Source: a virus. Taken from it: DNA of 64,000 bases. The notes below the pieces were generated by a model. The model was not told the origin of the DNA, did not search any database, and saw only the letters and a list, made by a program, of their open reading frames with translations. This document shows, one piece after another, positions 3,018-50,931 of this stretch. Position 1 is the first letter of the stretch. The number at the start of each line of letters is the position of its first letter. The DNA is taken from IMG/VR virus record IMGVR_UViG_3300021599_002733. One strand, written 5' to 3'. The translations under genes were made by a program, and so were the position numbers.

Positions 3018-3706
3018 ATTTTACCCCAGTTTATGGTTGGTGAAAGCATATTCCCTTCTACGTGTGTTGAATATCCAGGAACACAAGATATTAAGTTGGA
3101 TCCAATGCTCCAAAGGTGAGTAAATTTATCGTGGTCTTTTGTCCATTTTTCAACTAAATCGCAATATTGAACATGGATATCAAAATGTTGTTTTAACGTT
3201 TTAAATTTACAAGCATATGTGTTTGTGGTTGAGGGTGTTGTACGCCAATGAATTGTAGGGGTTGCTATGATTTTGGATTGTAGAGATTCATACATTGGGA
3301 GATAGTATTTGTCTGGGTGGTCATATAGGGTGTAGTAATCTGCTCCTATATATTCAAATCCTTCAAGTAAAATATCTACCCATCCGGGTTTATGTAGGTA
3401 ATCGTCTTCTAGAAAATATATAATATCTTCATCACTATAGTTTTGCTCTATAACATAGTTTAAAAGGTTTAAGAATGATTGAGCATCGTTTCCTCCTTTT
3501 ACAGATACTTTATTTACGTTTTTACCATTTAGAAAATGTTCTTCAATACTACCATTCCCCGAGTCATGGAATGCTGTATATTCTACTCTGTTATCTAGAG
3601 TTGAGATAAGCGAGTCAAATATTTTTTCCCTGTCAAACCAATCGGGGCGTGGTTTGTTGTGTGAGTTTGAGGAGAAATTACAGTGACGTTGAAATACTCG
3701 TATCAT
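3014..3706 (-). CDS. putative glycosyltransferase (GT-A fold)
   Basis: IIYFLEDDYLH DxD motif; GYSTH C-terminal His; cluster context. Confidence 0.7.
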   Translation of the reverse strand: MIRVFQRHCNFSSNSHNKPRPDWFDREKIFDSLISTLDNRVEYTAFHDSGNGSIEEHFLNGKNVNKVSVKGGNDAQSFLNLLNYVIEQNYSDEDIIYFLEDDYLHKPGWVDILLEGFEYIGADYYTLYDHPDKYYLPMYESLQSKIIATPTIHWRTTPSTTNTYACKFKTLKQHFDIHVQYCDLVEKWTKDHDKFTHLWSIGSNLISCVPGYSTHVEGNMLSPTINWGKI

Positions 3707-34256: not shown

Positions 34257-35051
34257 TTAGAGTCCATTTATTTTTCTAAACATTTGAACATTATATTCTA
34301 CAAGATCTTCATTTACAAACTCCAAACTTATATCTTGATATTTGTTCATGTTAGCTATTGGTTTGGAAGATAAACCCATGTTTGTATATGGCATTTCTCC
34401 AATAGCGGCCATTACAGGGTTTGATGTATCAATTGATTCTATACATTTCATCCCATTATATAAACCAAATTCAATAGGAGATGCTGTTCCAAGCAAATGT
34501 ACTCTATCTGTGTCGGTTAGTATTTTGTCTTTTAGCAATTGTGATATAACTGTAAAACGTCCAATTGCTTTTCCAAGGTCTTTGTTTGGGTGAGGGCACA
34601 TTTCATTGTAGTATGAAGCACCATATGAATATGCTATCTTTTTATAGCCAAAATCTTTATATGCTTGTGTACATAGAACAGCTTCGTGGTAAGATTTTGC
34701 TTGTACTACAGCTACTTTCATTACTCCATCAGGTAGTTCAATTTGAGACCATAGTTTTGCATTTCTAACTGAGGCGTCTTTGTCCTCCCAAACATCAGGT
34801 ACAATAAATTCATTTGGTTCAAGTTTATTTATCCAATACATTAAACGATCTGTATTATATGCTTGACCTAATTCATGGAGTGAATTATCCATTACAATGT
34901 AGCGGGCTACATTTTTTGAGTTAAGAAAGAATGTACTATATTCTTCGTTTTCATCCATCAAATGGGGTAAGAGGTAATCAAAATCATTGAACTCTCGACT
35001 TTTCTCTAAAAGACAAAAAGGAACTTCATGTGATATTTTCATTTTTTTCAT
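34257..35051 (-). CDS. TGT-fold protein, putative DpdA-type 7-deazaguanine transglycosylase
   Basis: MDNS, VPDV, AVVQ, VHLLG, SIDTS in TGT barrel order; next to queC/D/E/folE. Confidence 0.7.
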   Translation of the reverse strand: MKKMKISHEVPFCLLEKSREFNDFDYLLPHLMDENEEYSTFFLNSKNVARYIVMDNSLHELGQAYNTDRLMYWINKLEPNEFIVPDVWEDKDASVRNAKLWSQIELPDGVMKVAVVQAKSYHEAVLCTQAYKDFGYKKIAYSYGASYYNEMCPHPNKDLGKAIGRFTVISQLLKDKILTDTDRVHLLGTASPIEFGLYNGMKCIESIDTSNPVMAAIGEMPYTNMGLSSKPIANMNKYQDISLEFVNEDLVEYNVQMFRKINGL

Positions 35052-35078
35052 AACTTTAAATTTTATCGAATATAATAA

Positions 35079-35684
35079 CTAAATTTTGTACCTCCAAATA
35101 TATCCAACAGAAGTAGCATTTTCTCCTTTTCTTAAAGCATTGTTAATCGCTGTAGGGTTTCCACCAACATTTCGAGCTGCTTCTTCAATGCTGGGGTGTT
35201 CTTGGATAAAATTCCCTTGTTTGTCATATTGGAGGACAGGTTTGTTATTGGATGGGATAGGTTTTCCTTTTTTAGATTGGCTTATTTTAAGTTTATTTTC
35301 TTCACTTCGTGTTTTACCTTTCCAATGGGAATTTTTTCTTTTACCTACATTCAATTTTCCTTTTTCGCTAATAAGTTTTCTGGTGTTTTCGTTGTGGGCT
35401 TCTACCCCACCTCCTCCAGGGTTTGAATTTAAACCTTCACTATATGAGTTATAGAATTCAATCCAGTATTTTTCTCGTTGAGCTAACAAAATTTCAATAT
35501 CTTCTATCACTTCAAATGTATGGTTTTCAAAACCGTATATTTCAAAGGATTGATTTAATTTTGGTTGTTTTTCAGTTTTACTACTATTCTTGTAATTCAT
35601 CCATCTAACATGGATATTTTGTGAACATCCTATATAAACTTCTCCTTTTGGGTTTGTAATTTTATAAATTCCACTTTTTTTCAT
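35079..35684 (-). mobile_element. free-standing GIY-YIG homing endonuclease (NUMOD3 + NUMOD1)
   Basis: SGIYKITN...YIG.S.NI..RW, REKYWI, GLN...GG, SEENKLKIS, PVLQYD..GNFIQE. Confidence 0.9.
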
Positions 35685-35704
35685 GTTTCCCGTTTATTAT
35701 ACAT

Positions 35705-35741
35705 ATGTGGAAGACAATAAAAAATGCGGGAGACAGTAAAA
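35705..35741 (-). repeat. tandem 18-bp imperfect direct repeat overlapping HEG late promoter (TTTTAYTGTCTYCCRCAT x2)
   Basis: 35705-35722 and 35724-35741 differ at 3 positions, all third positions of F-Y-C-L-P-H codons. Confidence 0.85.
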
Positions 35742-35746
35742 TATTT

Positions 35747-36232
35747 TTACTCTTTTACTACTAGTTCTTCTCCTATCAATGCAAAGTATAGGTTTTGGAG
35801 TTCATGAACATGGATTAAATCTTTTAAAGACCAAGTTGGAGGTGAAATTCCTTCCACTGTAATACCCATATGTTTTCTTTCAGGGTTAACAAAAGATTTC
35901 ATAATGATGATGTTTTTTAATTTGTAAATATCACACCCACTCATATTATAATCTTGTTTAACAAACCCAAATTTTAACAACCATTCTTCTGTTAGTGGGA
36001 TTGGGTCAATGTCTAAATCTCTACATCCACTATGGATGGTTCCACCCATTATTTTACCTGGGATTTCATAGAAGCAGATGATTTTGCATCCTTTCATTGC
36101 GGAGCCATCGTTAAATCCAGTTATTTGGAATTCATTGGTTTTATAGATATCGTATCCTGTCTCCCATCCATCTTCAAAGATTTCGTCTTTTATTTTAACC
36201 CAATTTCCAATCCTTAATTCACTTGCTCTCAT
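35747..36232 (-). CDS. conserved Bacteroidota-phage protein (ELRIGN...PIPLTEEWL family)
   Basis: MRASELRIGNWV, PIPLTEEWLLKFGF, VHELQNLYFAL.GEEL. Confidence 0.7.
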   Translation of the reverse strand: MRASELRIGNWVKIKDEIFEDGWETGYDIYKTNEFQITGFNDGSAMKGCKIICFYEIPGKIMGGTIHSGCRDLDIDPIPLTEEWLLKFGFVKQDYNMSGCDIYKLKNIIIMKSFVNPERKHMGITVEGISPPTWSLKDLIHVHELQNLYFALIGEELVVKE

Positions 36233-36236
36233 GACA

Positions 36237-36503
36237 TCAATTATATGCAAAATTTTTCTCTTGGGCAACTACTCTATATTCCATTTTACCATCTTCTGTT
36301 TCTTGAAAACGCGTAGCATCATATCCAATCCATTTCATACCCCATTTAGTGGTTCCTGAGTTTGAAATACCTTTAAGGATGTAAACTTGTTGATCTAAAA
36401 AATTACAATATTCTTCTTCTACATGGTATGTTTGTCCTTCTTTAACACTTGCTCCACGAGGGAGATTTTTGTCATTGATACAAATTACTTTTTTCATTTC
36501 CAT
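36237..36503 (-). CDS. hypothetical protein
   Basis: KVICIND...GYDATRF. Confidence 0.6.
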   Translation of the reverse strand: MEMKKVICINDKNLPRGASVKEGQTYHVEEEYCNFLDQQVYILKGISNSGTTKWGMKWIGYDATRFQETEDGKMEYRVVAQEKNFAYN

Positions 36504-37012
36504 TTTATTTTGTGATTTAATACTTTAATAGCATATCCATTTATTTGAGGATATCCTGTGTTATAGTATCCAAACACAATTCCCCAATTTTTATATTTTT
36601 TATACAATCTACGAAGCATTTTCATAGAAGTACGCACATTGTATTTTATATCAGTTTTTAATTGTTCACGAGAAACATGGTCTTTGTTTAAACCTCTAGC
36701 AGTAGAAAGCAATACCTGCATTGGTCCCAATGCGTTTGCACAGGAGGTTTGTGCAGGGTTGTATCTCCAATGGAATGGTCCATTATATCCTGTTTCTACT
36801 TTAGCTACTCCATAAGCATATCGTTTAGGGATATTGAATGAATCAGCATAGTATTCTATATAATGATACATTTGAATACAAGGAGGATCTGTTGGTGTAA
36901 CAGGGTGCATATCCCGAAGTGGTTCTTGTGGTGGTGGGGATGGGGGTGGGGTTAAAGATGCTAATAGCAAAAGCCCCACAGATGATCCAAATAAAACTTT
37001 TATCTTATTCAT
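36494..37012 (-). CDS. lytic transglycosylase (SLT-like) with N-terminal signal anchor
   Basis: VAKVETG catalytic Glu, ALGPMQV, NV...., GYYNTG. Confidence 0.8.
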   Translation of the reverse strand: MNKIKVLFGSSVGLLLLASLTPPPSPPPQEPLRDMHPVTPTDPPCIQMYHYIEYYADSFNIPKRYAYGVAKVETGYNGPFHWRYNPAQTSCANALGPMQVLLSTARGLNKDHVSREQLKTDIKYNVRTSMKMLRRLYKKYKNWGIVFGYYNTGYPQINGYAIKVLNHKIKWK

Positions 37013-37322
37013 TAGTGACAGCATTTTGATAAATACGATTAGTATACATTTTAAATATAGTCATTCCGATTTTATCTGAATAAATGACATATTTTCCTGT
37101 TTTTCTATCTAGCATGAGTAATTCGTTGCTTTCGTTTACAGCAATAGAGATTTCATCAGCATCATAAGCATGAGAGTAGGGGTTATCTTGTACATGAGGA
37201 TTAGTATGAGGAAATCTTTTACCAATAAAGAATCCAATTACTAAAGCTCCTACAATGATAGCATATGTAAATGCTTTTTTAGCAAAGGCCATAACCTTTT
37301 CTTTGTTCAAAACTGTTTTCAT
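37005..37322 (-). CDS. membrane-anchored protein
   Basis: TM YAIIVGALVIGFFIG; start at MKTVL. Confidence 0.6.
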   Translation of the reverse strand: MKTVLNKEKVMAFAKKAFTYAIIVGALVIGFFIGKRFPHTNPHVQDNPYSHAYDADEISIAVNESNELLMLDRKTGKYVIYSDKIGMTIFKMYTNRIYQNAVTNE

Positions 37323-48880: not shown

Positions 48881-49627
48881 TTATATTTCCAAATTAGGAT
48901 CATAAATTTCTTTTTTTCCTATATTTCTATTTCCTCTTAGAGTATCTCCAAATTGTTGAGATATTTCTGTTGTTTTCCATAACGGAAAAAGATTTTCTAA
49001 ACTCCAACATTCTTTAATTTCTTCAACATTCAAAACATCAAATAGATTTTGTGGTTTAATATGATGAATTTCCCAAACATTTCCAAAATTATCCCAACAC
49101 ATTCCGTTCCTGAATTTGTTTTCTATATGGGATTGGAGTTGATCAAATGTATAGGAAATTATTTTGGAAAAAGATAAATTTTTGTTTTTTCCTTTATCTT
49201 TAAAAAATAAATGGAAATTTGCTTTCATAACAGTTTGTAACTTAAATTGAATGTTATTTTTATATTTTATCTTCCAATTTAATTTTCTTTTTTCTTTTAC
49301 ATTATCTTGTTTAGAATAAATTAACAATCGTTCTTTATTATCTTGATAGTATTTTTCCCAATACCCATTTTCCTTGTACTTTTTATTGAATTTATCTCTT
49401 TGGATCTGATATTTTTCTGGGTTGTTTTGTTTCCATATTTTATGTCGTTCTGTTTCTTTTTTAGTATAATATTGTTGGTTTTTTAAATATGACTGTTTTA
49501 CACTAATTTTTACACATATCTTACATCTTTTATTAAAACCATCTTCTGTGTTTTTATTTTTATTAAAATTACATAAAGGTTGGGGGGTTTCTTTTAAATG
49601 GCATTTTGGGTTATTACATACTTTCAT
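48881..49627 (-). mobile_element. free-standing HNH homing endonuclease
   Basis: N-terminal Cys knuckle, charged helical repeats, M.WDN.G..WEIHHIKP...C..L.NL.PLW; start at MKVCNN. Confidence 0.85.
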
Positions 49628-49645
49628 TTTATCATAAATATTGAA

Positions 49646-49663
49646 AGTCTCCAAGTTTTGTAA
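49646..49663 (-). promoter_or_regulatory. putative operator / target mimic TTACAAAACTTGGAGACT abutting late motif
   Basis: Synonymous variant of polA codons LQNLET at 49873-49890. Confidence 0.6.
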
Positions 49664-49668
49664 ATTTT

Positions 49669-50931
49669 CTATGAAATATTATGATAATTTGTGCCTTTTT
49701 TGAGTTTAACTTGTAATTTGTTTTTTTTAAATACTTTTAATATTTCTTTTAAAATATCTTTTTCACTTTTATCTACGTCAAATAAAAAAGAATCATAGAC
49801 ATACAAGATCAACTTTGTATTTTTTCCTCTAAGTAATTTTAAAATATCCCACAATATTAATATGTTCTGGGAAGTTTCTAGGTTTTGAAGTAAGTAATTT
49901 AATAACTTTTGTGGATTCATATCCTCCAACTGGTCTCTTTTATATATGTGTTTTGAAATTGGACATTCAATGTATCCTTGATAGTTAAAGGTATCCCACA
50001 AATCATCTGTGTATGATTGCATTTTCTTAAAAAATTCAAGGTGTTCATATTCTTTCCAAACACCACCATACATTTGTTTAAATGTTATTTCTTTAGACTT
50101 GGCGTAATCCACTCCATACATTTCAGCAAAACTTTGATGAATATCATCGCTAGAAAAAGTATAATCAAGTAAATTGGCCAAAAGAGTAGGATGATAAGCG
50201 CTAATATCCATTTCAAGGAAAAAATCATTACGCGGGATGAAACATTTTCTTTCTCCATTGTCTTTGTTTAATGCTGCAAAATTTATACCCCCAAATTTAT
50301 TGGAAGGGCGAGTTGTTGTTGTACTTAAATTATATTGGGTGTATATATAACCTCCATTATTTTTGTTAAAATATTCCTCAAATAAAGGAACATTTACTTT
50401 TATTCCATTGCGCTCTATAGCGTTAAATACAATAGTTGTTTTATCGTTATAGAATTTGTTTGGTTGTATATCAAAGTATTCTTTTAATGTATCAAAATGT
50501 CTTTCACAAACTTCATAATGTTTAACAATAGGAACAATTATGTTTATATTTTTTTGCTCTGGGTATTTGGAGTAAAAGAATGAATGTGTTGTAGTTGTTT
50601 CTTTTTCAAATTTAGGGTGTAGTAGGGTAAGGGAAACTATAGTTGGGTGGTAAAAGTAGTGTAAAAATTCCTTTTTATCTATCACATATATTTTCTCTAT
50701 ACTATATAATAGTTCTTGAACTAAATTAAAATCAACGCGAAACGTTTCGCTATGATGAACAGTCACCATATGCCCCTTACTTCCATCTACCGGTTTAATA
50801 TACACGGTAGATACGCTGTTTTCGGTTGGGTGGATGGTAGGTGAGAAAGGAATTACTTCAACATATGCTTCCTTTATTTTTATTGTGGAGAGTATGTCTA
50901 TTTTTTCCTTATCTTCTATCAACCAGTACAT
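49669..50931 (-). CDS. compact DNA polymerase family A
   Basis: IERNGI, TTTTRPS, CFIP, DISAYH (motif A), KEITF..MYG (motif B), NY.LQ, VYDS (motif C). Confidence 0.8.
   Translation of the reverse strand: MYWLIEDKEKIDILSTIKIKEAYVEVIPFSPTIHPTENSVSTVYIKPVDGSKGHMVTVHHSETFRVDFNLVQELLYSIEKIYVIDKKEFLHYFYHPTIVSLTLLHPKFEKETTTTHSFFYSKYPEQKNINIIVPIVKHYEVCERHFDTLKEYFDIQPNKFYNDKTTIVFNAIERNGIKVNVPLFEEYFNKNNGGYIYTQYNLSTTTTRPSNKFGGINFAALNKDNGERKCFIPRNDFFLEMDISAYHPTLLANLLDYTFSSDDIHQSFAEMYGVDYAKSKEITFKQMYGGVWKEYEHLEFFKKMQSYTDDLWDTFNYQGYIECPISKHIYKRDQLEDMNPQKLLNYLLQNLETSQNILILWDILKLLRGKNTKLILYVYDSFLFDVDKSEKDILKEILKVFKKNKLQVKLKKGTNYHNIS

Follow-up and report, generated by a model that had tools for sequence, protein, structure and literature searches.

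Tandem copies of a dpdA coding motif upstream of a free-standing GIY-YIG homing endonuclease gene are candidate autorepressor operators in an uncultured phage

We analysed the surroundings of a GIY-YIG homing endonuclease gene in a stretch of 64,000 nucleotides (nt), hereafter the window, from the IMG/VR virus record IMGVR_UViG_3300021599_002733, a 102 kb virus with an estimated completeness of 63%. Two similar 18 nt sequences stand in tandem immediately before the nuclease gene, and both resemble a site at the beginning of dpdA-like genes, one of which directly follows the nuclease. All genes of the region lie on the minus strand, and in the direction of transcription they run from an SLT-domain gene through an open reading frame (ORF) of 88 amino acids (aa), a 173 aa ORF, the two repeats, the GIY-YIG endonuclease and the dpdA-like gene to small ORFs and queC, queD and queE. 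The features, in coordinates of the window, are:

36494-37024, minus strand: SLT-domain gene
35747-36268, minus strand: variable upstream gene of 173 aa (phrog_10066), outside the conserved cassette
35724-35741, minus strand: distal operator-like copy, TTTTACTGTCTCCCGCAT, kept upstream of the nuclease family
35705-35722, minus strand: proximal operator-like copy, TTTTATTGTCTTCCACAT, nearly invariant among relatives
35693-35706, minus strand: phage promoter-like motif ATATGTATAATAAA (genome-wide form AATAT(T/G)TATAATAAA), 8 nt before the ATG
35671-35729, minus strand: predicted read-through RNA hairpin, minimum free energy -15.3 kcal/mol, z -2.3
35079-35684, minus strand: free-standing homing endonuclease gene of 201 aa, ATG at 35684, assigned with Pfam and PHROGs; GIY-YIG domain at aa 4-80 (35445-35675), NUMOD3 at aa 117-135, NUMOD1 helix-turn-helix at aa 148-182
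35082-35249, minus strand: conserved C-terminal block of the nuclease, aa 146-201
34257-35051, minus strand: dpdA-like gene of 264 aa, DNA guanine transglycosylase family, presumed homing target, assigned by homology and que linkage
34962-34979, minus strand: resident altered site GAT TAC CTC TTA CCC CAT (DYLLPH), recognised by its weight-matrix score and by comparison with nuclease-less alleles
34960-35003, minus strand: 44 nt recoded patch, dpdA nt 49-92, a candidate co-conversion island that travels with the nuclease

The nuclease carries a GIY-YIG domain (Pfam PF01541, E 2e-6), aligns with the catalytic domain of I-TevI (1mk0/1ln0, E 8e-6) with the GIY..YIG, RW, RE and GxN motifs matched, and belongs to the homing endonuclease family phrog_314 (E 2.5e-26). 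NUMOD1 was recovered at 23.7 bits (cut-off 22.8) and NUMOD3 at 18.0 bits, under its cut-off of 20.4. With this catalytic domain, the NUMOD region and the mobility described below, the protein qualifies as a predicted GIY-YIG homing endonuclease of the I-TevI/Seg type. Aligned over 97% of its length, the dpdA-like protein shares 34% identity with the annotated DpdA of Flavobacterium phage immuto; identity to Campylobacter phage proteins is likewise 34%, and the sole Pfam match is a sub-threshold one to DUF6610. Homology to the DpdA/TGT fold together with linkage to the downstream preQ0 synthesis genes queC, queD and queE identifies it as a putative DpdA. Searching the 3.2 kb region with blastn against deposited phages returned a single 51 nt match, to Cellulophaga phage phi10:1, and no cultured close relative. 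Our comparison set consisted of relatives from IMG/VR and JGI metagenomes, individual loci of which are given by L or P numbers.

Read along the minus strand, TTTTACTGTCTCCCGCAT (35741-35724), a single T, TTTTATTGTCTTCCACAT (35722-35705) and ATGTATAATAAACGGGAAAC lead to the ATG at 35684. Re-reading the sequence returned the tandem 18 nt copies where a preliminary description of this DNA had placed them, 1 nt apart and identical at 15 of 18 bases. As that description had also noted, the three differences (positions 6, 12 and 15) are all synonymous third positions of TTT TAY TGT CTY CCR CAT, and the proximal copy overlaps the motif upstream of the nuclease gene, with which it shares its last 2 nt. 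Such a repeat is at chance level within the window, where two places match at 15/18 or better with an offset of 18-30 nt, versus 0.9 +/- 0.7 in Markov-simulated windows; a seed-6 repeat search of the window reported nothing at the pair because the copies share no exact 6-mer. The window sequence alone therefore proves nothing, and the case rests on comparison with other genomes. In the 102 kb genome the degenerate consensus has no occurrence beyond these two places (controls gave no matches), and TAYTGYYTNCCNCAY is likewise confined to the two copies (no match for the reversed control). A complete 174 kb nuclease-less genome has TAYTGYYTNCCNCAY only at its dpdA site, and the genome of L013 has both copies as well as the dpdA site.

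The link to dpdA emerged from nuclease-less relatives. Wherever the consensus site was present in a sampled nuclease-less locus, it read GAT TAT TGT TTA CCC CAT (DYCLPH), nearly invariant even synonymously; the DYLLPH codons reported earlier for the resident gene were confirmed at 34979-34962. It had been predicted, as a test set beforehand on which the idea could fail, that homologues would read YCLPH at this position, and the 120 closest DpdA homologues comprise 96 with Cys, 14 with Leu, 5 with Met, 2 with Ala and 1 with Asn. A search of all IMG/VR for the exact 16-mer TTATTGTCTYCCACAT, from which 80 loci were read, placed it 8-39 nt before a nuclease of the same family in 20 loci and inside dpdA homologues in 15 (33-62% identical to the window protein), always in frame with the Tyr as codon 26, and none of these 15 has the nuclease upstream. 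The other 45 loci are scattered; by a rough estimate, some tens of chance matches are expected in such a collection. The proposal that the copies mimic the target in competitor dpdA alleles thus finds an exact counterpart, in frame and in the same codons, in 15 nuclease-less alleles: the operator matches other alleles at 16/16 positions and the local ones at 13/18. When a weight matrix was built from the operator copies, the dpdA site was the best match on either strand in most loci lacking the nuclease, at about 11 bits; the resident site scored -3.1, and scores were also negative in L009, L010 and L012. As a separate observation, dpdA codons 19-36 are almost synonymously invariant among nuclease-less alleles (L001, L003, L089-L094 and others) in genes that are otherwise 75-90% identical.

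The variation among operators follows that of coding sequence. Among 14 distinct operator copies, 14 of the 22 non-consensus bases are wobble-equivalent and 18 of the 22 are of synonymous type when position 10, the first base of Leu codons CTN/TTR, is counted. In the C-terminal NUMOD1 region of the nuclease (GNPTAINNAL...YIWRYK) conservation is 63-89%, against 47-58% for the catalytic half of the same proteins, and in L027, the only member without direct operators, the C-terminus has diverged (44%). Conservation of the DNA-binding domain and wobble-type variation of the operators would fit recognition of the copies by the nuclease, tolerant where the target varies. The wobble tolerance invoked at the outset is borne out insofar as operator variants cluster at wobble-type positions, which fits recognition by the nuclease without proving it.

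The nuclease family (48-100% aa identity) lies immediately upstream of dpdA in every member. It is missing from otherwise syntenic relatives, the insertion site being the same throughout, and in many relatives without it the 88 aa ORF runs straight into dpdA; on a dpdA tree built from nt 131 to the 3' end of the gene, its presence changes at least 10 times. The tandem pair, ATnTATAATAAA and a start codon about 20 nt further on are retained in nearly all family members, and the pair stands before every close member down to about 50% protein identity; a single copy is kept in L016 and L019, and the core is inverted in L027. In five lineages (L014, L015, L018, L021 and L026) the 57 nt regulatory block is 81-86% identical, versus 58-69% for the nuclease ORF and 56-68% for its third codon positions. 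The 100 nt 5' of the block are unalignable at 23-72% identity, versus 80-100% for the block itself, the conserved part starting at the distal copy; the cassette is preceded either by a terminator hairpin or by a variable gene's 3' end, depending on the genome. A block more conserved than the nuclease's own coding sequence appears to be under selection.

Several further observations concern the cassette and its surroundings. In L011, L102 and L014, from which the 173 aa gene is absent, a terminator-like hairpin (GCCTGC..GCAGGC followed by a T-run) lies 20-45 nt upstream of the distal copy, and would limit read-through into the nuclease gene. The slot from the 88 aa ORF to dpdA is a hot spot at which cargo varies (35747-36268 in the window; L006:3769-4001; L125:2043-2504; a 419 nt gap in L110), examples being phrog_10066 genes only 29-43% identical between genomes, a 77-codon ORF in L006 and, in L125, a CTP_transf_like gene. 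About 2 kb downstream of dpdA, some genomes carry a further GIY-YIG gene with 34-36% identity to the nuclease (L002:6087-6524, L005:6943-7374, L121:5092-5727); these are genomes without the nuclease upstream of dpdA. The nucleases of L014, L015, L016, L022 and L026 (223-224 aa) possess an extra linker module of 23-25 aa (SHWKGK...), a duplicated NUMOD3-like repeat, which should alter the distance between the binding and catalytic domains.

Within dpdA itself, the site differs with the presence of the nuclease. Taking dpdA codons 19-30 of nuclease-less loci as a 36-mer consensus, all 11 of 11 nuclease-bearing loci of the close clade depart from it at 6-16 positions and none keeps the consensus site; nuclease-less loci exhibit 0-10 differences, with 10 of 18 at four or fewer. 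The Cys codon has been replaced by CTC or CTA (Leu), GCT (Ala), ATG (Met) or ATA (Ile) depending on the lineage, and in L013 the Cys is retained and the 5' flank recoded, including a Tyr to Phe change. The Cys-to-Leu substitution first proposed as protection is present in the resident gene (DYLLPH) but is one of several routes to an altered site, alongside Ala, Met, Ile and the flank-only recoding of L013. We also considered whether Cys27 is essential, so that resistance would be costly, and rejected the idea since the annotated immuto DpdA has Ala there; the residue is therefore replaceable.

The altered site lies in a mosaic gene. The window and L009 possess nucleases that are 100% identical in protein and 98% in DNA, in front of dpdA genes that are only about 75% identical, and 34960-35003 is a 44 nt run of perfect identity between the two with the altered site inside it. 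The recoded patch is common to nuclease-bearing genomes whose remaining dpdA is 74-80% identical, and L122-L124 and the nuclease-less L127 carry it at 92-98% identity. For the dpdA backbone of the window, in turn, the nearest matches (about 90%) are nuclease-less genomes, and in these the patch reaches only 73-75% identity. This mosaic matches the prediction of homing with co-conversion, which would place the immunity determinants in dpdA nt 49-92, that is, in the core and about 30 nt 5' of it.

On the regulatory side, TATAATAAA occurs 15 times in the window versus 5 expected, 13 times on the coding strand and mostly 0-20 nt before start codons, and the putative promoter overlapped by the proximal copy is recognised by this recurrence. 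The 13 minus-strand sites of AATAT(T/G)TATAATAAA include 14098, 15467, 17362, 22122, 23276, 57310, 59758 and 60809, and twice abut an ATG; the recurrent motif is probably a late-type phage promoter giving very short leaders or none. A simple sigma-70 and terminator scan found nothing specific at the site. In the hairpin predicted for read-through RNA, the 5' arm runs from the end of the distal copy through a T-run into the proximal copy, the 3' arm covers the start-codon region and codons 2-5, and the promoter motif falls in the loop. This structure is predicted in the window and six close relatives (z -1.4 to -5.6); it is not formed in L020, L021, L022 and L026, though these retain the copies, and when 13 sequences were folded jointly with RNAalifold, neither a supported consensus hairpin nor compensatory pairs emerged. 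The hairpin is therefore better seen as an added layer than as the reason for the conservation. The upstream copy had been suggested to pair with RNA just before the ATG; a hairpin hiding the start is indeed predicted, but it draws mainly on the proximal copy and the T-run instead of the upstream copy, and distant relatives do not form it.

Setting the observed sequence identity, conservation, distribution and mosaicism side by side, we regard it as probable that the two copies are I-TevI-type autorepressor operators equal to the homing target, with the resident dpdA recoded by co-conversion and a hairpin added in close relatives. From these observations we infer binding, repression, a cut position and immunity in the following way. 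The homing target would be the dpdA stretch for N-D-Y-D-Y-C-L-P-H (codons about 19-30) of nuclease-less phages, and the tandem copies 5' of the nuclease promoter would be copies of its core, both bound by the NUMOD1 helix-turn-helix domain. Because the proximal copy abuts the promoter motif, the bound nuclease is proposed to repress its own transcription, as I-TevI does. The copies would escape cutting because they lack the target's 5' flank, in which the cut is taken to fall; in I-TevI the binding and cleavage sites are likewise separate (PMC2988022). The resident dpdA would escape through the 44 nt recoded patch (which includes TGT to CTC, Cys to Leu), co-converted with the nuclease, and in close relatives the DNA of the copies would double as the 5' arm of a hairpin by which read-through transcripts conceal their start codon. 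The interpretation offered in the preliminary description is supported at all points that sequence data can test.

A number of results weigh against this proposal. No zinc finger was found in the 201 aa nuclease, which has one Cys in the whole protein; an operator that escapes cutting would have to do so by another mechanism than in I-TevI. The more distant nuclease-bearing genomes L020, L021, L026, L027 and L028 retain a good YCLPH site in their own dpdA, so that either the core alone cannot determine cutting or those enzymes differ. Conversely, alleles with Leu or Met occur without the nuclease (L006, L097/L100, L121, L125-L127, P0013). A tree-corrected sign test of nuclease presence against a non-Cys residue had 8 independent pairs and gave a median p of 0.125, in the expected direction and underpowered, and the uncorrected Mann-Whitney p of 0.0002 overstates the case because the loci are related. 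The promoter is a predicted one, known only from its motif, and co-variation of the DNA-binding domain with the operators turns on a single contrast, L027.

Three other explanations of the copies were weighed. They might act at the RNA level only, the 5' arm hiding the start codon in read-through transcripts, transcripts begun at the promoter being translated and no protein binding the DNA. The consistent hairpin in the window and its six close relatives speaks for this, as does the promoter motif in the loop, an arrangement also found for I-TevI (PMC2988022). Against it, the 3' arm is non-complementary in the four genomes named above that keep the copies regardless, and this view does not explain why the copies match dpdA alleles exactly or why the 5' half of the distal copy is needed; the failure of RNAalifold to support a consensus, with no compensatory changes, downgraded this possibility further, and we hold it to be quite unlikely. 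A mere remnant or chance resemblance with no present role would agree with the chance level of a 15/18 repeat at such spacing within the window, yet it has to contend with a block that, among nuclease lineages sharing about 50% identity, is more conserved than synonymous positions in the ORF next to it, with an exact in-frame 16-mer in 15 dpdA alleles, and with a pattern unique in three genomes. It is very improbable and strongly disfavoured.

The remaining explanation concerns where the copies came from, and part of it may hold whatever their role. The copies could be dpdA 5' coding sequence captured at the left junction, as a terminus duplication, and now serving RNA polymerase or another factor as an element upstream of the promoter, with no part for the nuclease. 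In L026 the upstream gene is joined at its ...PLKRRGRPKKVI end to a remnant of the dpdA start (22/23 nt) that precedes the copies, and a 19 nt direct repeat, AAAAAAGTTATATAAATGA, flanks the cassette (junction scar regions L026:2380-2470 and 3150-3200). In L021 (2400-2470) and L026 the distal copy is preceded by an ATG and reads M-I-Y-C-L-P-H, and descent from dpdA coding sequence would also account for the wobble-type differences. Such descent is nonetheless compatible with binding by the nuclease. The recoded patch and the co-conversion island point to YCLPH as the target region, in which case its copies would be bound too, and the motif is found nowhere else in the genome, which argues against a general promoter element; we consider this explanation unlikely. 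As to origin, captured dpdA coding sequence may have given rise to the copies, with later retention as a cis element; an operator could plausibly arise in this way, and what looks like mimicry may be descent rather than convergence. We also observed that the upstream gene in L021, L022 and L026 ends with an AT-hook-like RRGRPKK peptide.

A similar arrangement was found elsewhere in the window, at a second nuclease ORF that follows polA:

48881-49627: second nuclease ORF, EndoVII/HNH-like, after polA; phrog_1035 endonuclease VII-like, E 1.4e-4 (weak)
49646-49663: polA mimic TTACAAAACTTGGAGACT, abutting a AATATTTATGATAAA motif and preceding the second nuclease
49873-49890: resident polA site, synonymously recoded as CTT CAA AAC CTA GAA ACT

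Most of 31 polA relatives read TTA CAA AAC TTG GAG ACC at the LQNLET codons, a 17/18 match to the mimic. The second nuclease matched no Pfam family at E 0.01 or better, and its homologue is missing from 31 of the 31 polA relatives fetched, two of which have about 800 nt of unexamined sequence behind polA. A like layout at an unrelated nuclease supports the possibility of a general rule in this phage group. The polA LQNLET site is, like the dpdA codons, almost synonymously invariant, despite the non-preferred codons TTG GAG ACC.

The arrangement has precedents among phage homing endonucleases. I-TevI was reportedly described as a transcriptional autorepressor by Edgell et al. in 2004, and a zinc finger is the element that keeps it from cutting its own operator. 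It is a GIY-YIG intron endonuclease of phage T4 that represses its own transcription from an operator identical to the homing site at 15 of 20 positions and overlapping a late promoter (PMC2988022). The present locus resembles it in joining a GIY-YIG catalytic domain to a NUMOD-type DNA-binding domain, in placing a sequence like the presumed homing site against what is probably the nuclease's own late-type promoter and in having a predicted start-codon-hiding hairpin with the promoter motif inside. It differs in that the gene is free-standing and not intron-encoded, in having two tandem copies instead of one, in its presumed target (dpdA, not td) and in the lack of a linker zinc finger. I-TevII and I-TevIII, of different nuclease families, have putative operators in which a homing-site-like sequence overlaps the endonuclease promoter (PMC2988022). 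These share with our locus a homing-site-like sequence at a promoter (here a predicted one), paralleled by the EndoVII/HNH-like polA case, and are as putative there as here, whereas theirs are intron-encoded and single-copy. To our knowledge, autorepression through a target-like operator has been demonstrated for one enzyme only, I-TevI.

Free-standing phage homing endonucleases that cut a neighbouring gene include SegF, SegG and mobE of T-even phages and F-CphI of cyanophage S-PM2. As in those systems, the nuclease here is inserted between genes, the presumed target belongs to a conserved neighbour gene in relatives that lack the nuclease and lies roughly 100 nt away from the insertion point, the resident allele carries apparently protective polymorphisms and flanking markers seem to be co-converted in patches. 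Here, in contrast, the presumably resistant patch also circulates without the nuclease. We know of no target-copy operators described for SegF, SegG, mobE or F-CphI. The locus is thus a further well-documented example of the I-TevI-type layout (free-standing, with tandem copies, lacking a zinc finger and presumably directed at dpdA), not a new principle.

One regulatory consequence is conceivable, although we give it little credence: rival dpdA 16-mers in a mixed infection could titrate the nuclease off its operators and so de-repress the gene when a target is present. If true, the nuclease would sit on its two operators in a single infection and keep itself off, the tandem copies would sharpen the switch, and the like logic at the polA nuclease would make this a general design rule for free-standing homing genes. 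Apart from this, the locus extends the target-like-operator layout to free-standing homing genes of an abundant uncultured phage group of about 160-170 kb, with tolerated operator variation that mirrors the synonymous variation of the target. It also provides a natural data set in which a presumed target is represented by exact-match alleles and by independent, seemingly resistant recodings (Leu, Ala, Met, Ile and flank-only), together with a putative co-conversion patch that also spreads without the nuclease and a junction scar (L026). These alleles offer substrates with which to ask how GIY-YIG enzymes part binding from cutting without a zinc finger, and they suggest that dpdA, a DNA-hypermodification gene, is a battleground of related phages.

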